The translations under genes and the position numbers were made by a program. Source: a virus (Duplodnaviria > Caudoviricetes). Taken from it: 42,056 nucleotides of DNA. A model generated the notes under the pieces. It searched no databases, was not told the DNA's origin, and worked only from the letters and a program-made list of their open reading frames with translations. Below are positions 3,807 to 38,528 of this stretch, one piece after another (the stretch's first letter is position 1; every line of letters starts with the position of its first letter). The DNA lies in the IMG/VR virus record IMGVR_UViG_3300037722_000331, positions 1-42,056 of that record. One strand, given 5' to 3'.

Positions 3807-4025
3807 ATGCGACATAAAGCTCTAATTGATTTGCTGAGGGACTTGTGGTTATATCCCATGACGACTAAATCTGACTATGCCCGCCTCCATGCCGACATCA
3901 TATCAGAAGCGGCTGTAAAGGGCCTGATCACCACACAAGCAAAGCCCGGAGTTTCTCCTATGGTATACGGGAGAGAGTGGCGAGTTACTCCGGCTGGTTT
4001 AATCATGCTCTGGGAGCTTAATTAG
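3807..4025 (+). CDS. T7 gp5.7-like protein (host RNAP inhibitor family)
   Basis: KSDYAR...ISEAAVKGLITT...EWRVTPAG resembles T7 gp5.7 as I recall it, and it sits between polymerase and exonuclease. ATG 3807 preferred as start. Confidence 0.75.
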   Translation: MRHKALIDLLRDLWLYPMTTKSDYARLHADIISEAAVKGLITTQAKPGVSPMVYGREWRVTPAGLIMLWELN

Positions 4026-4838
4026 ATGACTAAGCGACGTACTGCAATCATCGATGCCGATAGTGTCCTCTATTCTATTGCGGCCATGGCGGAAGTCAGG
4101 GTCGATGAGAATGAATGGCTGCCATTGATACCGCCCGAAAAGGCGTTGGATCAGGTAGTCTTTATGATTGAGTCTCTGACGAACGAAGCGGGATGTGATC
4201 GAGCCCTTGTCGTGCTTTCAGACCATCGCAACTTTCGCAAAGTTCTTTATCCCGCTTATAAGAGCAACAGGAAAGACGCCAGACGGCCGACCATTCTTGG
4301 GGAATTGAGAGCACTCGTAATGGGGGCTGATAAAGGCTATGGAAAATTAATCATTCCCTGGCTTGAAGCCGACGATGTGTGTGGTATTTCCTATGGCCTT
4401 CTCGCGGAAAAGGGTATGGAGTCTGTGATCGTTTCGCAAGACAAGGATATGTGTTCGATCCCTTGTCTGCTGTACAATCCCAGGCCCAATGCATTCACAG
4501 GGAGCAGACGCCCCGTCGAGACTATTAGCGAAGCATCTGCGGACAGATTTCATCTCATGCAGACGCTTTCGGGAGACGCTGTAGATGGCTATCCTGGGTG
4601 CCCCGGAATAGGCTTTGTGAAGGCGAATAAAATACTCGAAGGATATAATAATGCAGAGGCCGTGGATGCTGGAGTCACTGGCGCTGAAGCCTGGAAAAGG
4701 GTGGTTGCTGCCTATGTGGAGAAGGGCCTCACCGAGCAGGATGCCCTGTTGCAGGCCCGCGTGGCTCGGATATTGAGATCGAAAGATTGGGATGCGGTCA
4801 ACAAGAAAGTCAAGCAATGGGAGCCTGAGCGTGACTGA
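4026..4838 (+). CDS. 5'-3' exonuclease (T7 gp6-like)
   Basis: IIDADS, NFRK..YPAYKSNRK, LEADD, SQDKD, GDAVDGYPGCPGIG. Confidence 0.95.
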   Translation: MTKRRTAIIDADSVLYSIAAMAEVRVDENEWLPLIPPEKALDQVVFMIESLTNEAGCDRALVVLSDHRNFRKVLYPAYKSNRKDARRPTILGELRALVMGADKGYGKLIIPWLEADDVCGISYGLLAEKGMESVIVSQDKDMCSIPCLLYNPRPNAFTGSRRPVETISEASADRFHLMQTLSGDAVDGYPGCPGIGFVKANKILEGYNNAEAVDAGVTGAEAWKRVVAAYVEKGLTEQDALLQARVARILRSKDWDAVNKKVKQWEPERD

Positions 4839-5238
4839 GGAGCTTAAAGACACCAATCCAAAAACCCGCTTCGGTAAAGCTAAACCCCCCTTGGAGCTTA
4901 CCCTATCGACAGCGCTTCTTCATATGGCAAAGGCTCAGCAATCCGGCGATTTGAGATATGGGCGCATGAACTGGCGCACTGATCCAGTCACTGCCTCGAT
5001 CTATGTGGGAGCGCTTCTGCGCCATACCCTGAAGTGGTGGTCAGGCGGTATCGATTTCGATCCTGAGTCCGGTGCGCACGAACTTGGACACGTGATGAAT
5101 AACGCGGCGATTTTACTTGACGCGAGGGACAATCATACGTTAATAGATGATAGACCTCCTCCCAATCCGCGTATCCTGGAATTGATCGCACAGCTAACAG
5201 AGGCTTTGGAAGCAGATGACAATCAACCGAAGAGATAA
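4831..5238 (+). CDS. dATP/dGTP diphosphohydrolase-like (DUF5664-type) protein
   Basis: TNPK..FG..KPPL, G..RYGRMNWR, ALLRH, DPESGAHELGH, LIDDRP pattern. GTG 4831 follows a GGAG. Confidence 0.7.
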   Translation: MTEELKDTNPKTRFGKAKPPLELTLSTALLHMAKAQQSGDLRYGRMNWRTDPVTASIYVGALLRHTLKWWSGGIDFDPESGAHELGHVMNNAAILLDARDNHTLIDDRPPPNPRILELIAQLTEALEADDNQPKR

Positions 5239-5821: not shown

Positions 5822-7429
5822 ATGACTGACCACCTTCTAACAGGCGCGTCCACCGCCGCCGGCCGATATAAAAAGCTGTCCTCTGATCGAGAGCCGTTTC
5901 TTCAGCGCGCCCGTAGGCAGGCTTCATTGACGCTCACTTCGCTATTCCGTAACATCGGAGACAACGGATTTACGGATCATGCTGTCGCCTGGAATAGTTT
6001 TGGCGCGTATGCCGTCAATAACCTATCGAACAAAGTCATCCTGTCCCTGTTCCCTGCCGGCGTGCCCTGGATAAAGCTTCGGCAATCCCGACAGGGGCTG
6101 GCGGATTTAGCTGAGTTGCCCCCTGAGATAGCCGGACAATTAAGGGCTGAGATCGCCGCTGCTCTGTCGATTGTGGAGCAGGATTTCACTGAGGAGGTAG
6201 AAGTCGATGGTGATAGGTTCCGTCTATTCACGGCCGTGAAGCGCCTTCTTGTCGGGGGCAATCACGCTCTCAGGTTCTTGAAGAATGGCAAGGTAGCGGG
6301 TATTCCTCTGGAGCGTTATGTGACGCTTCGAGCCCCCGATGGCACACTCGTAGAATGGGTGATTGAGTCGGCTATTGACTTTGAACATCTTCCAGAGGAC
6401 GTGCAACGGGTAGCTCAGGAAAAGGGACACAAGGGTCGCAGTCAGTTCAAGCCGGCCGACATCATCAAGGTCTACACACACGGCTATTTCAATGACGGTC
6501 AGTGGATAGTGTACGATGAGGTCGAAGGCGAGAAGGTTGCTGACTCTGAAGCGAAGTTCGATCCCGATACCCTGCCTTGGATGTTCTTGCGCTGGACCGG
6601 GCTCGAAGAAGAGCACTATGGTCGCTCCTATGCAGAAGACTATGAAGCCGACCTACAGACTGTGGACGGTATCACACAGATCGTTCAGGAAGGCTCTGCG
6701 GCGGCTGCGCTGTTCATTAGGCTGGTCAGTCCCAATGGCGTCACGAACAAGCGGGCTATTGAACAGGCTCAGAATGGGGCCGTTATCACGGGCGAGCAGC
6801 AAGATGTCTCCACTCTACAGGGAGATAAGGGTTCCGATTTCCAGGGGGCTCTCACTGTAGAGGATCGTGCCCTCGCCCGGCTTTCCCGCGCCTTCCTACT
6901 AAACTCGGCTGTCCAGCGCTCCGGCGAACGGGTCACTGCCGAAGAGATCAGGTTCGTTGCTCGCGAGCTTGAGGATCAGCTAGGTGGGGCTTACTCAAAC
7001 CAGGTTGTAGAGTTTCAGCAGCCTTACGCCCGCCTCAAGCTACAAGCTCTTCAACGCCTGGATCGCATCACGCGAATGCCCAAGAATGCCGTCGATCTCG
7101 TGATTATCACCGGGTCGGCCGCTCTAGGGCGTCAGGCGGAAATTCAGCTTCTCGATGCGTTCCTTCTCGGGGGCGCTCAGGTGATCCAGGCTATCGGGCC
7201 TAACATCATCGATGAGAACGTGTACATGAAACGCCGCGCCGCCGCTTTGGGCGTTGATACCGAAGGATTGGTATTGACACCCGAACAAAGAGACGCTAGA
7301 CAACAAGAGCTGGCCCAAAGTCAGCTTAGCCAACAAATTGCGCCAGAGGTTACGAGGCAGGCTGGACAGCTTATTCAACAGCAACGCCAGCAAGCCGCAG
7401 ATCAGGCACAGACGCAAGATCAACAATAG
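5822..7429 (+). CDS. Portal / head-tail connector (gp8-like)
   Basis: 535 aa; GAYAVNNLSNK..LSLFP, EHYGRSY, QRSGERVTAEEIR, ALGR. Confidence 0.96.
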   Translation: MTDHLLTGASTAAGRYKKLSSDREPFLQRARRQASLTLTSLFRNIGDNGFTDHAVAWNSFGAYAVNNLSNKVILSLFPAGVPWIKLRQSRQGLADLAELPPEIAGQLRAEIAAALSIVEQDFTEEVEVDGDRFRLFTAVKRLLVGGNHALRFLKNGKVAGIPLERYVTLRAPDGTLVEWVIESAIDFEHLPEDVQRVAQEKGHKGRSQFKPADIIKVYTHGYFNDGQWIVYDEVEGEKVADSEAKFDPDTLPWMFLRWTGLEEEHYGRSYAEDYEADLQTVDGITQIVQEGSAAAALFIRLVSPNGVTNKRAIEQAQNGAVITGEQQDVSTLQGDKGSDFQGALTVEDRALARLSRAFLLNSAVQRSGERVTAEEIRFVARELEDQLGGAYSNQVVEFQQPYARLKLQALQRLDRITRMPKNAVDLVIITGSAALGRQAEIQLLDAFLLGGAQVIQAIGPNIIDENVYMKRRAAALGVDTEGLVLTPEQRDARQQELAQSQLSQQIAPEVTRQAGQLIQQQRQQAADQAQTQDQQ

Positions 7430-7444
7430 AGGAGTTTCAGGATC

Positions 7445-8233
7445 ATGGTTCTTAGAGTCACTTCTTCTGAAGAAGGCGGTATCCAGGCCACTGAGCAATC
7501 TGGCACCACTAGCGTCACAGGTGGCGAAGGTGGAATTACAACCAATCAACAGCCCGGATTTCAGCGCATTGAAGCTGAGCGTCCTGCCGCAGAGTCTGCC
7601 AAGGAAGCCGAGACCAAACCGGCAACTGAAGACACCAAGGCCGCACCCGCCAAAGAAGAGGCCACGAAAACAGAACCGGCTAAGGAGGCGGCCACAGAAA
7701 AGAAGGTCGCTGAACCTTCTGCTTTTGAGAAGGCCCGGCTCGATCTGGCCGATGACTTCCTTAACAACAACGGCAGCCTCACCGACGATGCTGTCAAGAA
7801 GGCTGTCGAGGCGTTCAAGGACACGGGGTTCACTGAACAGGACATTCGCATCTATGAGGCCGGGCTCAAGGCCCAAATGGCGGAGACCTATAAGGACTTC
7901 GGAGGGTTTGACCAGTTCAAGCAGTTCCTGTCGTGGGCCGAAGCGGGGATGGCGAAGAACGATCAAGACCTCTACAATGACTTCCTCAATCGCGCGGAGT
8001 TCGGCAAGGCGGGTGCTCTTGCTAACACCTACCGGCAGAAGTGGCAGGCGGCTACTGGCGATGTTCAACGCCGCGACATCACCGAGAAAGCTAATGCGTC
8101 CAATACTGCGCCGTCGGGAGCGGTTCAGGGCTATGCTTCACAGGCTGAGATGAAGAAGGACATGGGCGATCCACGTTACGCTAAAGACTCGGCGTTTCGT
8201 GCAATGGTCGCCAAAAGAATGGCGGCATCCTGA
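7445..8233 (+). CDS. Capsid scaffolding protein (gp9-like)
   Basis: Acidic; follows the portal; C-terminal GYASQAEM..DM.DPRY..D.AFR..V..R. Confidence 0.92.
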   Translation: MVLRVTSSEEGGIQATEQSGTTSVTGGEGGITTNQQPGFQRIEAERPAAESAKEAETKPATEDTKAAPAKEEATKTEPAKEAATEKKVAEPSAFEKARLDLADDFLNNNGSLTDDAVKKAVEAFKDTGFTEQDIRIYEAGLKAQMAETYKDFGGFDQFKQFLSWAEAGMAKNDQDLYNDFLNRAEFGKAGALANTYRQKWQAATGDVQRRDITEKANASNTAPSGAVQGYASQAEMKKDMGDPRYAKDSAFRAMVAKRMAAS

Positions 8234-27207: not shown

Positions 27208-27413
27208 TGCCAAGCGGCAAATATGGCAGCATTTCGTGGTCAATTCACGGGGTGCCGAAGGGTTCTGCATTCAAGCAGACTCTGCGGGCCAGGGTAAGAA
27301 ATCGTGAAGTGACGATCCCTTTGCTCGATCCGTGGGCTTTGATGTCGGATGAGCAACGCATCCACACCCTTGAGGCTGTAAAGGCCAGTCTATGCCCACG
27401 CGAACCGCGATAA
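27207..27413 (+). CDS. Hypothetical protein
   Basis: TAATG coupling at 27207. Confidence 0.5.
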   Translation: MPSGKYGSISWSIHGVPKGSAFKQTLRARVRNREVTIPLLDPWALMSDEQRIHTLEAVKASLCPREPR

Positions 27414-27853
27414 CCATCAAGAGAACCGATAATGCGGCGCTTGTTCATCATCTCCACGAGAAGATATTCAAGATGGGGGCGGATTGGGAGACCGCCGATG
27501 CTTACTGGCTGGCGCTGGATCGCAGCAGAGAGGATAGCGCCGAGATCGGCTTTGCGGCTGCCCAGTATCTGCCACTGAGCCTGGAGACGGATTATGACCA
27601 ACCTGCGGTGTTCCTGCACAGGGTTGGAGTCTTTCCTGAGTACGCCGGCAAGGGTATACAGAGGCGGTTGATCCTGGCGAGGGAACGGTGGGCGATGAGG
27701 CAGGGTGCTACACTTGTAGTAACCTATGCGAGCCGTCATAACGAGCCCTCTATTGCGAACCTCTTAAGGATGGGCTATAGGTTTGCGGAGCCGTGGATAG
27801 GCTACTCGGCCAAGGAATGGGTGTTCTTTACGAAGGAGTTGGAGCATGTGTAA
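27392..27853 (+). CDS. GNAT acetyltransferase
   Basis: FLHRVGVFPEYAGKGIQRRL (motif A); N.PSIANLLRMGY (motif B). Confidence 0.88.
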   Translation: MPTRTAITIKRTDNAALVHHLHEKIFKMGADWETADAYWLALDRSREDSAEIGFAAAQYLPLSLETDYDQPAVFLHRVGVFPEYAGKGIQRRLILARERWAMRQGATLVVTYASRHNEPSIANLLRMGYRFAEPWIGYSAKEWVFFTKELEHV

Positions 27854-28581: not shown

Positions 28582-28630
28582 GTGACCGACTTACAGGGGA
28601 TCAATCATAGGTCCCTTGTTTGGCGATCAC
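28582..28630 (+). repeat. Structured intergenic repeat R1
   Basis: GTGA CCGA CTT ACAGGGGATC aatcata GGTCCCTTGT TTGG CGA TCAC. Confidence 0.95.
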
Positions 28631-28666
28631 GCCACAAAGAGCCACAAAGAAAGGAACACACGCGCA

Positions 28667-29140
28667 ATGAAAATCACCAATGATCTATTGCAAGCTAAGA
28701 ACCCTTGGAACCCTTGTGAAAGCGGGCTTGCCGCGTTTAATGCGGAATACCCAGACGGATTAGAATTGTCGGATTGGACCCTTGAACGCCAACTTACTCT
28801 TTTGAAAACGTCAAAGGTCTGCCGTCTCTATTTTGGGTGGGCGGTAAAGGTAGGCATAATTCCGGCATGGTCAATGGCTAGAGTAGACCTTAGCAATATT
28901 GACCTTAGCGGTGCGAACCTTAGCAGGGCGGACCTTAGCGGGGCGGACCTTAACATGGCGAACCTTAGCGGTGCGAACCTTAGCAGGGCGGACCTTAGCG
29001 ATGCGAACCTTATCGGGGCGAACCTTAGCGATGCGAACCTTATCGGGGCAAACCTTATCGAGGCGGACCTTAGCAGGGCGAACCTTAGCGGTGTGCGCCT
29101 TAGCGATGCGAACCTTATCGGGGCGGACCTTAGCGCTTAG
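28667..29140 (+). CDS. Pentapeptide repeat protein
   Basis: About 17 A(N/D)L(S/I)x repeats after an N-terminal domain; AAAGGA SD before ATG 28667. Confidence 0.93.
28884..29137 (+). repeat. 15-bp degenerate tandem repeats coding the pentapeptides
   Basis: Unit gcg(a/g)acctta(g/t)cnnn repeated. Confidence 0.9.
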
Positions 29141-31856: not shown

Positions 31857-31943
31857 ATGTCAGTAACCTATGAGGAATTAGACGCGATCCGCGCCCGGTA
31901 CGGTAGTACCAAATGCTGGAGGAGAATGGACGATGAAGAATGA
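31857..31943 (+). CDS. 28-aa peptide
   Basis: GGAGG SD; fills the gap up to the recombinase. Confidence 0.45.
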   Translation: MSVTYEELDAIRARYGSTKCWRRMDDEE

Positions 31944-32763
31944 CACCCTATCCCCTTGGTTAGCCTTTGGGCTTGACTTTTATCAAGATAGCCCTACAAG
32001 GCTCGCAGCGCTTCACTGGTGCGCGTCTTCTGGCGAGCTACCTGCCTACCTAGAAACCCTAAGACCGCACCACGGGGCTAGGTTGCGCCATGCTATGGGC
32101 TATCTATCGCCGGCAACTCAACGGCTCTACTATCAAACCTTCCTAGGCGTTCTGAAGGCGGCGCGGATCGACTTGCAAGGTTGGCCTAAAGCTCCCAGAG
32201 TCCCCAACATCAAGCGCCGTGATCCGCTCGAAGAGGACGATCTACAAAATGTCCTTAATTGGCTCAGGGGGCGAAAATGGCATAGGACGGCGGCGCTAGG
32301 CTATTTGCTCAGACATACAGGTATGCGGGCTGACAAGGAAGCCCTCCACTCGGCCCTTCACATATCGAGGATCACGCCCGCAGAGGGCAAGCCCTACGTG
32401 CTGCTTGAGATTGACAAGGGCAAAGGGGACGATTATAGGGCCGTGCCTGTCACAGACCCTACGGCGGCAAGCATCCTGGCAAATTCCGAGGTGATGCACC
32501 ATATCAGGCAGACACCTTATTCGACGCATCGGCAGCGTTGGAAGATGGCGGTTGACACGCTTGGAATTAAGTCTAAGCTGCCAACGCTTCATTCGCTACG
32601 GCACGCTTATGCCACTGACTGTTATCGCAAGACGGGAGACCTCACCGCAGTGCAGCACCTTCTGGGACACAAAGACGTGAACACGACGACGCGGTATCTG
32701 GCAGTCAGAACGCATCAGGACCTCGCTGACGCTTTATCAGCTACCATACAGGCGATAGCATGA
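31933..32763 (+). CDS. Tyrosine recombinase / integrase (compact, Xer-like)
   Basis: Full catalytic set: TGMR, GKG..R.VP, HSLRH, LLGH....TTRY. Confidence 0.95.
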   Translation: MKNDTLSPWLAFGLDFYQDSPTRLAALHWCASSGELPAYLETLRPHHGARLRHAMGYLSPATQRLYYQTFLGVLKAARIDLQGWPKAPRVPNIKRRDPLEEDDLQNVLNWLRGRKWHRTAALGYLLRHTGMRADKEALHSALHISRITPAEGKPYVLLEIDKGKGDDYRAVPVTDPTAASILANSEVMHHIRQTPYSTHRQRWKMAVDTLGIKSKLPTLHSLRHAYATDCYRKTGDLTAVQHLLGHKDVNTTTRYLAVRTHQDLADALSATIQAIA

Positions 32764-32987
32764 GCATCCGGGCTATACTCAATATCAGAGGGTTTTCACA
32801 TGACTTCTGGTTTGATGAGAAGAGCGAGAGCGATCTCATAAGCAGGCTTAATTCTACGGGCTTTACGAGGGTGTATAAGCAAGACCCTTCGGAAGTTAAG
32901 CTGACAAACTGGCCGCTTTATACAGCACCGTGGCATTACATTCGCTGTGAGGAAGTCTCTATTATCCAGATCACTGAGATCAAATAA
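32760..32987 (+). CDS. Hypothetical protein
   Basis: ATGA coupling to the recombinase. Confidence 0.6.
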   Translation: MSIRAILNIRGFSHDFWFDEKSESDLISRLNSTGFTRVYKQDPSEVKLTNWPLYTAPWHYIRCEEVSIIQITEIK

Positions 32988-32998
32988 GGAACCGTGCA

Positions 32999-33949
32999 AT
33001 GGGCGAATGCTATATAACATACCCCAATGGAGCCACCCGTGACATCAGAGACCATGTCGCCGAGAACCTTGCAATGTCAGCGGGAAGCGGATCAAAGGGA
33101 TTGTGCGATAGGAAGGAGGATGAAGAGCCTTCAGTCGGGAAATGCAAATCCGATCTTGCAGCGGTGGGTGGGAAAGTCAGTAGAGCCCTGCGCGCGAAGG
33201 ATGCGAGACGTAGCAAGGGCGTGGGCGGAAAAGGAGTGGATTACGGTTGGGGAGCTTTTGACGACGGATGTATTCGGCTTGGCATCGGCGTCTCAACATT
33301 CCCATTCGCTGACACCGTTGCTGCTCTGGTGTTTGCAGGGCTCATCAAGAGCAACTATGCAACCAGGCTCCTCTACTCCAATGTCCTTCTCGAACGACTT
33401 AATGCTTACGGCAGTGGGGTCTCTGATCTCAGGTATCGTGCTAAAGAGCGCGCGGGGGGCGGAGAGTGTAACCCTGAACTCCTGTCTATCCTCTATGAGT
33501 ATCTCACTGCGAGAAACTTTGATTGGGCAGTGGTTGACCGAGTTTCAGGGGCAGGAAACGCTGCTCGGCCTGAAAAGAGAAACCTACGCCTGGAAAAAGC
33601 TGCGACAATTATCGCATCCGAGTCGTTTGTTGATCGCACAAGTAAAGCCTCAGCTAGAGTCACAGTCCCGAGGCGAGATCGATTTGGAAGCCCTTGGACA
33701 CCGTACCATCCTCAAGGTGTTTCAGCAGGTACGGGGCGAGGAGCAGCCGCGCCAGATCAGCATGAAGGCAATACCCACAGAGAACGACTGGAAGGTCCTT
33801 TCTATCGCCCAAATGACCTTAGGCGAGGACCAGCAAAACCATGCCTTGTGGACTACGTTTTCCCTGCTCATGCTCTGTATTATTCAGAGGGAGTTGGGAT
33901 GGATCGACATCGTTTCGGGGCGGCCAACTGGGAAGCGCGCGAAGAATAA
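32999..33949 (+). CDS. Candidate overprinted gene in the RNAP N-terminal region
   Basis: 316 stop-free codons in the -1 frame; TAAGGA SD 8 nt upstream of ATG. Confidence 0.45.
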   Translation: MGECYITYPNGATRDIRDHVAENLAMSAGSGSKGLCDRKEDEEPSVGKCKSDLAAVGGKVSRALRAKDARRSKGVGGKGVDYGWGAFDDGCIRLGIGVSTFPFADTVAALVFAGLIKSNYATRLLYSNVLLERLNAYGSGVSDLRYRAKERAGGGECNPELLSILYEYLTARNFDWAVVDRVSGAGNAARPEKRNLRLEKAATIIASESFVDRTSKASARVTVPRRDRFGSPWTPYHPQGVSAGTGRGAAAPDQHEGNTHRERLEGPFYRPNDLRRGPAKPCLVDYVFPAHALYYSEGVGMDRHRFGAANWEAREE

Positions 33950-35756
33950 AGGACGGCAGCGCTATGTTATCCTGACAGAGGAAGCGGCCGTGGCAATCGG
34001 TAAAGATGCTCATGCGTGGGCTCAGATGGGATGGTATGATCAGCCTATGCTGACACCCCCTGAAAAAGGAGACTACCTGACTGTGAAACACCGCCCTATC
34101 TCCAATAGAGCCGCCCCCTCAAAGCACTCCATCACGAAAGCCGAGGAGTCGTGGCAATGGGAGACTGCTTGCGATGTTCTCGCGAGCACACCGTGGCGCG
34201 TGAACTCCTGGGCCGTGCAAGAAGCAATGGCAAACGATAGCCTTACTCCTCGGGAGCGTGTCATCGTCGCGGATCATGCTCGCCTGGGAAATGCGCCCTT
34301 CTGGTTGCCTATAATGATGGACTTCCGGGGTCGGGTCTATCCGAGGACAGCGACGGTCAGCTATCAAGGGTCCGATCTCCAGAAATCCCTTCTTATGTTC
34401 AATCCCTTGAAGGGAGACGGTAGCCTTGCGCAGGCTCCTCTTGACGTGCAGTGGGCTGTAAAGCGTCACATGATATGCTTAGAAGGAAAATGGGATAAGA
34501 GTATAAAACAAGAACAGATACACGCGCAACATGGTATTATTTGGGAAGAGCCTCATCAGTTTTGGGCGCATAGGCGGCTTATACAGGAAGGGCTCTGGAA
34601 TAGCATCCCCATTCAAATCGATGGCACATGCAATGGCCTTCAGCACATTTCAGCGATGTTCGCCGACGAAGTAGCCGCTCCCTGCGTGAACCTTTGCAAC
34701 CACGACGCTCCTCAGGATATTTATGGCAAGGTCGCGAAAGAGGTGGAGTTCCGGCTGAATGACATCGCTTTCTGCGCCGATGCTGAAGACGGGTGGGCCG
34801 GGCGCTTGCTGCACTGTGGGGCTGACCTCGGCAGGAAGCTGATGAAGAAGCCGGTTATGACTCTGCCTTACGGGGCCACCATGAGGGGAGTCGCCGACTT
34901 TCTGCTTGAAGGACTTATTGAGCAAAAGCCGTCTCCTACGCCTTGGCGGGAATGTCTGACCTGGGACACACTGGAATGTCGGTGGGTCAGAGATAGTGTG
35001 GAGATATCCCACGATGCCCTTGCCTTCGCCGACCGCGAGCTTGCACGGCATCCACTATTCCGGGCCGATGTCAATCGCCTGTCCGCAGTGGTATGGAAAG
35101 CCATAGAGGCTACCCTGCCCCGTGCAATGGCCGCCATGAGCACTTTCAGGAAGCTGGCCGGCGGGGTCGGGGAACACGTTCTCGCGTGGGAGACGGGGCC
35201 TGAGAGCAGAAGCCTAGTTGTCAGGCAGGCCAAAGCACAGGCGTATATCAAACGGATGCGCTTGATGAGCTTGCATCTGCCCAACAGCATTAGGACATTG
35301 CAAACCCTGGTAGGCCGCGATGAGGTGGACGCGAGGTATCACCGCAACGGGATCATCGCCAACTTCATTCACTCGCAGGATGCCGACCATATGGCGAGGA
35401 CCATGCGTCTGTTCCGTAAGCATGGGGGCACCTGCTTTGGGGCCGCGCACGACTGCTTCTCTGCAAGGGCCATGGAGATACCCATCCTGCATTGGGCTAC
35501 CCGTATGGCGTTCCTGGAGAAGTACGCTGGCGAACCGACTAAGGGGGATCGTAGAGACGCCGCTCTCCTTGGCGAACCGGCCAATCCCAATCATCCTCTT
35601 AACCAGAGAATTTCCATCCTCGATCACCGCACGGGGGCCATAGTCTCCGAATACGACAACTGGTACCGCTTCGCGGACGCCATGAAGGTATCCTTCCCGG
35701 ACAGGGGGAGCTTCGATCTCAAGGAGGTGCTCGGCAGTGAGTGGTTCTTCTCATAA
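33027..35756 (+). CDS. Single-subunit DNA-dependent RNA polymerase (T7 gp1-like)
   Basis: PMLTPP, DFRGRVYP, motif A DGTCNGLQH, motif B RKLMKKPVMTLPYG, NFIHSQD, motif C HDCF, C-terminal WFFS. Start codon uncertain. Confidence 0.96.
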   Translation: MEPPVTSETMSPRTLQCQREADQRDCAIGRRMKSLQSGNANPILQRWVGKSVEPCARRMRDVARAWAEKEWITVGELLTTDVFGLASASQHSHSLTPLLLWCLQGSSRATMQPGSSTPMSFSNDLMLTAVGSLISGIVLKSARGAESVTLNSCLSSMSISLRETLIGQWLTEFQGQETLLGLKRETYAWKKLRQLSHPSRLLIAQVKPQLESQSRGEIDLEALGHRTILKVFQQVRGEEQPRQISMKAIPTENDWKVLSIAQMTLGEDQQNHALWTTFSLLMLCIIQRELGWIDIVSGRPTGKRAKNKGRQRYVILTEEAAVAIGKDAHAWAQMGWYDQPMLTPPEKGDYLTVKHRPISNRAAPSKHSITKAEESWQWETACDVLASTPWRVNSWAVQEAMANDSLTPRERVIVADHARLGNAPFWLPIMMDFRGRVYPRTATVSYQGSDLQKSLLMFNPLKGDGSLAQAPLDVQWAVKRHMICLEGKWDKSIKQEQIHAQHGIIWEEPHQFWAHRRLIQEGLWNSIPIQIDGTCNGLQHISAMFADEVAAPCVNLCNHDAPQDIYGKVAKEVEFRLNDIAFCADAEDGWAGRLLHCGADLGRKLMKKPVMTLPYGATMRGVADFLLEGLIEQKPSPTPWRECLTWDTLECRWVRDSVEISHDALAFADRELARHPLFRADVNRLSAVVWKAIEATLPRAMAAMSTFRKLAGGVGEHVLAWETGPESRSLVVRQAKAQAYIKRMRLMSLHLPNSIRTLQTLVGRDEVDARYHRNGIIANFIHSQDADHMARTMRLFRKHGGTCFGAAHDCFSARAMEIPILHWATRMAFLEKYAGEPTKGDRRDAALLGEPANPNHPLNQRISILDHRTGAIVSEYDNWYRFADAMKVSFPDRGSFDLKEVLGSEWFFS

Positions 35757-36995: not shown

Positions 36996-37028
36996 CTTTG
37001 TTACCATAATAGAGGACTAGGAAGCGAT
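36996..37028 (+). promoter_or_regulatory. Candidate phage RNAP promoter, copy 1
   Basis: CTTTGTTACCATAATAGAGGACTAGGAAGCGAT; 32/33 identical to 38496-38528. Confidence 0.65.
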
Positions 37029-38495: not shown

Positions 38496-38528
38496 CTTTG
38501 TTACCATAATAGAGGACCAGGAAGCGAT
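38496..38528 (+). promoter_or_regulatory. Candidate phage RNAP promoter, copy 2
   Basis: CTTTGTTACCATAATAGAGGACCAGGAAGCGAT; intergenic, upstream of the endonuclease cluster. Confidence 0.65.

Follow-up and report, generated by a model that had tools for sequence, protein, structure and literature searches.

The RNA polymerase (RNAP) gene of this phage raises the question of whether its first 307 codons also carry a second gene, as a reading frame of 316 codons runs across them without interruption in the -1 (= +2) frame. The window analysed here is a complete virus record of 42,056 bp with a 127-nt direct terminal repeat. Its gene set is that of a T7-like (Autographiviridae-type) phage, with profile matches to an RNAP, a T7 primase-helicase, a family A DNA polymerase, a Gp10A capsid protein, a nozzle protein, a T7 tail fibre and a T7 terminase. 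A tyrosine integrase is encoded upstream of the RNAP gene, as in a temperate T7-like phage; an integrase was found in 10/12 clade loci examined, and one distant clade member, L163, sits within a 4.1-Mb Novosphingobium contig. Few phage genes are as well studied as those for T7-like RNAPs, and their annotations give a single coding frame. The coordinates of the relevant features are given in Table 1.

Table 1. Features of the integrase-RNAP region of the window
Feature	Position	Strand	Remarks
Tyrosine integrase	31933..32763	+	PF00589; position matches L082
75-aa ORF	32760..32987	+	Directly upstream of the -1 ORF; common to L082, 32% identical
SD TAAGGA of the -1 ORF	32985..32990	+	8 nt before ATG 32999; -6.2 kcal/mol
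-1 ORF, 316 codons, -1 (= +2) frame of the RNAP gene	32999..33949	+	Likely overprinted gene; counterpart L082:3952-4905
RNAP-frame stop codon	33015..33017	+	Downstream of the -1 ORF start, ahead of the RNAP starts
T7-like single-subunit RNAP	33027..35756	+	909 aa from ATG 33027; PF00940, phrog_414
GGAG SD and GTG 33039, likely RNAP start	33029..33041	+	6-nt spacing, -5.6 kcal/mol
Stop codon TAA of the -1 ORF	33947..33949	+	RNAP codons 307/308, loop of a predicted beta-hairpin

The original prediction, a dual-coding region, started from the length of this frame and from its translation signals, and both read as claimed: an ATG preceded at 8 nt by a TAAGGA Shine-Dalgarno (SD) sequence opens a frame that is -1 relative to the RNAP gene and continues to its TAA. 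The TAA of the SD sequence doubles as the stop codon of the upstream 75-aa ORF, which has no family match in Pfam or PHROGs, and the -1 start occupies the natural next-gene position of the operon. At the other end, the stop codon aligns with about residue 237 of T7 RNAP, some 30 residues ahead of the PCVVPP motif of the T7 enzyme, within a hairpin that we take to be T7's promoter-opening hairpin; the claim that the ORF ends near the end of the N-terminal domain thus holds roughly.

The other frame of the overlap belongs to a T7-like RNAP. The predicted model (pLDDT 82.9) matches T7 RNAP 8dh5 (Z 34.4, rmsd 4.3, 611 aligned). From residue ~11 onwards, frame 0 of the overlap adopts the fold of a T7-like N-terminal domain in this model, so frame 0 must be translated from near its start. 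The RNAP frame had been described as oddly Ser-rich, which is borne out by a Ser content of 10.3% in residues 16-307 and 5.1% downstream; clade rows outside the window's four-member subclade range from 3.9 to 9.3%. The public gene call for the window RNAP (P0001) is truncated, starting only at residue 157 (753 aa), as are the calls for several relatives; the mixed codon signal in the overlap may be misleading gene callers.

The -1 frame contains no stop codon over RNAP codons 1-306 but 25 over the remaining ~600 codons. DNA-level motif avoidance was ruled out as the cause of the open frame, as the same stretch is full of stops in its other frames (22 in the +1 frame and 9-13 in the antisense frames). 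Within the overlap, T is found at 0/38 of the junctions where it would make a stop and at 46/167 of the other T-capable third positions (Fisher p 2.5e-5), while downstream of the overlap the same gene has T at 24/105 stop-capable junctions. In the codon-permutation test proposed with the original prediction, only 2 (codon) and 3 (synonymous) per 100,000 whole-gene shuffles matched the window ORF, rising to 34 per 100,000 when synonymous shuffling was confined to the overlap. None of 19 other window genes reached the level of the RNAP overlap, the lowest counts being 12 and 18 per 1,000 shuffles. A 271-codon +1 frame ORF (7338-8153) also lies over the gene before the capsid gene (7445-8233), and its length is explained by composition (319/1,000 shuffles as long).

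The same shuffle test was applied to 214 distinct T7-like RNAP ORFs, and a count of at most 5/500 was obtained for 5 of these in the -1 frame and for 12 in the +1 frame. The shuffle null is therefore liberal and a test on a single genome is insufficient. The five -1 frame cases are the window, its relative L082 and mid-gene stretches of L187, L218 and L222. These three stretches, in unrelated RNAP genes, are open for 442 (RNAP codons 80-522), 177 (260-437) and 315 codons (516-831), respectively, with at most 1/500 shuffles as good.

Relatives of the window were sought with a 29-row RNAP alignment, which, in addition to the window, provided 14 clade loci with DNA; as the metagenome scan spanned 47/64 parts, further carriers may have been missed. 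The protein collection contains 29 close environmental relatives of the window RNAP (34-54% identity), and the identity of this RNAP to named phages is at most 30% among the best 30 of 2,293 matches. The closest relative with DNA is L082, a locus cut at RNAP residue ~707, whose RNAP is 55% identical to that of the window. It carries a -1 ORF of 317 codons (3952-4905) whose ATG lies 1 nt past the stop codon of its own 75-aa ORF, and the order integrase, 75-aa ORF and -1 ORF/RNAP overlap is found in both genomes. Both -1 ORFs start with Met-Gly-Glu behind an AGGA-type SD sequence, directly behind the 75-aa gene and before the conserved RNAP sequence sets in, and the L082 ORF ends two codons beyond the window's position with a different stop codon (TAG).

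The L082 frame also avoids stops, with T at 0/38 stop-capable junctions and 44/192 elsewhere, and on its own it was matched by 14, 36 and 8 per 100,000 codon, synonymous and overlap-confined synonymous shuffles, respectively. Pooled over both carriers, the counts by stop type are 0/20 (AA), 0/16 (AG) and 0/40 (GA), and the avoided stops are evenly distributed along the overlap. On the RNAP tree the carriers lie 1.02 changes per column apart, and their third positions are saturated: 4-fold sites are identical at 23/78 positions in the overlap and 45/119 downstream. Only 15 stop-capable junctions are common to both genomes, 11 of which differ at the third base, and the 23 unshared junctions of L082 alone give p = 0.0025. 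With so few 4-fold sites and junctions shared, and with most of the shared junctions differing, the open frame in L082 is not a simple carry-over.

The 13 more distant loci (34-37% RNAP identity) all lack the ORF and have -1 stops in this region; L006 and L088 are identical here and L087 has no 5' end. Accordingly, 12/12 distinct distant relatives have T at such junctions, from 2/42 to 18/49. Among non-carriers, L002 comes nearest, its -1 frame being open for 199 codons in a stretch that does not begin with Met. Stops in close relatives had been named beforehand as evidence against dual coding, and they occur only at this distance; the one close relative with DNA has kept the ORF despite its saturated third positions. 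No additional carrier was found among viral contigs, whether the query was the RNAP of the window or an alignment of the subclade or of the integrase, or in a search of shorter proteins. The sequencing runs listed included no RNA data set with this locus, and the second run yielded only short pieces, none of which covered the overlap informatively. In a quick IQ-TREE analysis of 19 of 49 RNAP rows, the window and P0002, a near-copy of the L082 RNAP, are sisters (99 SH-aLRT), followed by P0003 and P0028 (98), which are represented by protein only. The N-terminal domains of these two proteins are Ser-rich (10.5% and 8.7%), a resemblance to the carriers that offers no more than a hint. In many non-carriers, another -1 frame ORF comes in from upstream and terminates near the RNAP start; translation in the -1 frame across that start would thus be an old feature of the clade, from which the long ORF may have grown.

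An alternative frame thus stays open for longer than chance predicts on an ancestral gene that is itself functional, and its range, 2/15 clade loci with DNA, is narrower than that of the ancestral frame, as is characteristic of overprinted genes. Together, the permutation tests and the retention of the ORF in L082 across saturated third positions support dual coding. On this sequence evidence, the -1 frame over the first 307 RNAP codons is likely a lineage-restricted overprinted gene, which likely originated in one sub-lineage of integrase-bearing T7-like phages, and we are confident, short of certainty, that it is translated and under selection.

The codon and amino-acid usage of the -1 frame points the same way. 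Against a synonymous null with stops excluded, resemblance to the window's genes in codon and amino-acid use gave z 2.74 and 2.55 for the window and 3.67 and 2.29 for L082, a level of gene-likeness seen in 0/11 non-carriers (highest z 0.9; the duplicate L006 and the truncated L087 were left out). Inside the overlap, the gene-likeness score of the window's -1 frame (-4.09) is close to that of the RNAP frame (-4.13), compared with -4.44 for the -1 frame outside it.

The sequence of the product is far less constrained than its length. The two -1 products are 25-28% identical, which is no excess over the null (221/2,000 nulls as high by identity and 68/2,000 by BLOSUM) and not above control stretches downstream; an apparent BLOSUM excess came from stops in the null, and without these the score was at the control level. 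Constraint at synonymous sites, suggested as a signature of dual coding, was not detected between the carriers either, at the 4-fold sites given above or at free synonymous sites (identical at 32/72 in the overlap and 65/136 downstream), and the RNAP N-terminal domain shows no extra conservation between them, ranking near the bottom of 79 pairs. The pair therefore does not look like an old, sequence-constrained overlapping gene. Both products are rich in Gly, Ala and Arg, with one moderately hydrophobic stretch near residues 98-117 (KD 1.7 and 1.5). Structure prediction had been proposed for both frames: the RNAP frame folds, while the -1 product, modelled from a two-row alignment, has a pLDDT of 32.7 and no confident fold, with helices weakly predicted at 82-208. 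A complex prediction for RNAP 16-880 and residues 82-215 of the -1 product scored 0.00, which is evidence neither way.

No homologue of the -1 product was found in Pfam, PHROGs, a word-indexed protein search, the ESM Atlas, viral contigs or five related genomes, and HMMER with the two-row alignment had no match over 1.84 billion representatives. Gene callers rarely call overlapped frames, so these blank searches say little.

The most durable alternative to start competition is that the -1 product is an independently acting accessory factor, for host takeover, anti-defence or RNAP binding, whose start overlap barely affects RNAP. T7 lysozyme, for comparison, binds the phage RNAP directly. The full length kept in both carriers, the gene-like amino-acid use and the weakly predicted helices are what such a factor would display. 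An identity of 28% is also not out of range for one, because neighbouring accessory proteins of the two carriers are only 32-48% identical. Set against this are the lack of excess sequence conservation, the low pLDDT and the blank searches for a homologue or family, and we regard an independent factor as unlikely, although it is the rival that we take most seriously.

A second alternative is that translation matters and the product does not: ribosomes in the -1 frame would shield the RNAP mRNA, itself poorly translated, over its first 950 nt from Rho or nucleases. This would account for a frame in which stops are avoided and codons are gene-like while the amino-acid sequence is free to drift. 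Rho loading sites are C-rich, however, and the overlap is G-rich (GC skew +0.08 to +0.17); the remaining 1,800 nt would be left uncovered and RNAP has a fair SD sequence of its own. We consider this explanation improbable.

It is slightly more improbable still that the frame is a chance or relict one, inherited open from a common ancestor and untranslated. The product is not conserved, the shuffle null yields more low p-values than nominal, and long open -1 stretches do occur in GC3-rich RNAP genes: stretches of at least 290 codons are present in 13/214 T7-like RNAP genes, 11 of which have a GC3 of at least 0.75. The carriers, however, have a GC3 of only 0.64 and 0.69, and the start, SD sequence and end of the ORF match in both. 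Moreover, given the turnover of third positions between the carriers, 7-10 stops would be expected in each if the frame were neutral.

How RNAP itself is initiated bears on the remaining alternative. It had been noted that RNAP has no SD sequence, which is correct for ATG 33027 (0 kcal/mol) and incorrect for the gene, as GTG 33039 is preceded by GGAG. This GTG follows the -1 ORF start by 40 nt and precedes the conserved R24 of the first conserved helix by 19 codons. The corresponding candidate in L082 is TTG 3968 (-3.4), 22 codons before the conserved helix and 16 nt after the -1 start, with a second in-frame TTG at 3920 (-5.6) upstream of the -1 start; SD-bearing candidate RNAP starts of relatives are mostly 14-30 codons before this helix. 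Pairing with the anti-SD slightly favours the -1 start over the RNAP start in both the window (-6.2 vs -5.6) and L082 (AGGA, -4.3 vs -3.4), these energies (kcal/mol) being scored with the E. coli anti-SD. RNA structure at the starts and at the -1 stop does not exceed that of shuffles (starts z -0.8 to +0.2). Re-initiation past the -1 stop was discarded, as the GTG found just downstream of it in the window is absent from L082.

It had also been proposed that RNAP is made by a +1 frameshift or by re-initiation, and a shift from the -1 start near the 5' end (or a fusion by a shift near the stop), with the 316-aa protein made by ribosomes that do not shift, is very improbable and unnecessary: although the -1 start is the best placed in the operon, ATG 33027 has no SD sequence and the nearest RNAP start of L082 is only a TTG with a weak one, GTG 33039 and TTG 3968 give RNAP its own in-frame, SD-bearing starts at the distance seen in relatives, unlike the downstream frame of a programmed +1 frameshift, which has no start of its own, there is no RNA structure signal, no slippery motif common to both 5' regions or both stop regions was seen on reading the two sequences, and any such route would have to shift downstream of the RNAP-frame stop at 33015..33017.

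We thus return to an overprinted gene whose start competes with that of RNAP. By analogy with T7-like phages, the host polymerase would transcribe an early mRNA that contains both frames, on which the -1 start would take ribosomes ahead of the RNAP start 16-40 nt downstream. This competition would lower RNAP initiation, and hence polymerase output, while the same mRNA yields a 316-aa, loosely folded accessory protein; a low level of RNAP could then serve the choice between lysis and lysogeny. Competition alone would require no more than a short upstream ORF, yet 316-317 codons have been kept, so selection likely also acts on the product or on the passage of ribosomes along the full stretch. 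This reading has weak points: the starts are 40 nt apart in the window and their initiation sites may overlap little, the SD differences between the -1 and RNAP starts are small, and the carriers number only two. We therefore give the full mechanism, namely an overprinted gene, start competition damping RNAP and a loosely folded accessory protein, an even chance. A more specific version, in which a dedicated RNAP regulator is overprinted in the promoter-binding domain, with a ratio set by competing starts and a lysis/lysogeny switch that replaces a classical repressor, is doubtful, a shade more so than an independently acting factor.

A brake on RNAP would suit an integrase-bearing T7-like phage. 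For Pseudomonas phage LUZ100, which has a tyrosine integrase upstream of its single-subunit RNAP as in the window, control of RNAP is proposed as the lysis/lysogeny switch, and RNAP silencing in integrase-bearing T7-like phages is treated as an open question (PMC10134795). LUZ100 has a terminator downstream of its integrase gene, a phage promoter ahead of RNAP and a MarR-like regulator, and the text consulted makes no mention of an overprinted ORF (PMC10134795). These LUZ100 elements have no counterpart found between the integrase and RNAP of the window: the early ORFs scanned have no MarR-like or other repressor match in Pfam or PHROGs, although small divergent repressors escape easily, there is no terminator-like site on the + strand between the two genes, and no copy of the candidate phage promoter lies there. 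No sigma-70-like promoter excess, tRNA or Rfam match was detected either. Five relatives (L002, L004, L006, L085 and L163) encode a ~180-200-aa protein with a signal-peptide-like start between integrase and RNAP, and all of these except L006 also have a ~50-aa protein with a common motif in this interval; the window and L082 have neither.

The layout resembles that of POLGARF, without any claim of homology. POLGARF is a 260-codon -1 frame ORF on mammalian POLG that starts 52 nt upstream, and it likewise covers the 5' part of a polymerase gene, has a conserved end, is limited to one lineage and shares an mRNA with the polymerase in a set ratio (bioRxiv 10.1101/2020.03.06.980391). It differs in relying on eukaryotic scanning and a CUG start with a uORF on a DNA polymerase gene, and in that its translation and product have been demonstrated and a synonymous-site signal reported (bioRxiv 10.1101/2020.03.06.980391). 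The window, in contrast, has a bacterial SD sequence and an ATG on a phage RNA polymerase gene, with 316 putatively translated codons and no synonymous signal.

Familiar examples of overprinting in phages are the E, B and K genes of phiX174 and the Rz1-type genes of lambda and T7. Same-strand and nested overlaps are described as common in annotated viral genomes (PMC7017920), young overprinted genes as evolving fast under weak selection (Sabath et al., PMC3494269), and products of +2 overlaps as more disordered, this being the minority class with 75% of overlaps in +1 (PMC8227390). The -1 ORF resembles overprinted viral accessory genes in these accounts in its restriction to a sub-lineage, lack of homologues, disorder-prone composition and fast evolution (PMC8227390, PMC3494269), but an overlap of ~920 nt, on the same strand as a central transcription enzyme of a 42-kb tailed phage and in the +2 frame, is not typical of them. 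The pattern fits a young gene, without proving a function.

Literature searches, in which subscription journals were thinly covered, brought up no earlier description of overprinting on a T7-like RNAP gene. A same-strand overlap of ~920 nt kept across saturated divergence would mean that core genes of tailed phages can hide long genes that callers miss, and with non-carrier relatives as outgroup it would provide a dated case of gene birth by overprinting. How such phages keep RNAP quiet could be probed directly at this locus, where the -1 ORF can be abolished by altering one base without any effect on the RNAP sequence.

Several other features of the window were recorded. A 33-nt direct repeat (97%) at 36996-37028 and 38496-38528, upstream of middle genes, is a candidate phage RNAP promoter, and its 16-base core has only those two window copies with at most 3 mismatches. 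An intergenic repeat of ~55-60 nt occurs in five copies among the early genes (28580, 29138, 29422, 29734 and 30162); it has no Rfam match, and three short motifs from it are absent from the L082 early region. All five copies adopt a common hairpin with a bulge (z -2.2 to -3.9), which presumably resembles the RNase III processing sites of T7 early mRNA. The early or terminal genes also include a pentapeptide-repeat protein (28616-29140) and a GNAT acetyltransferase (27392-27853).
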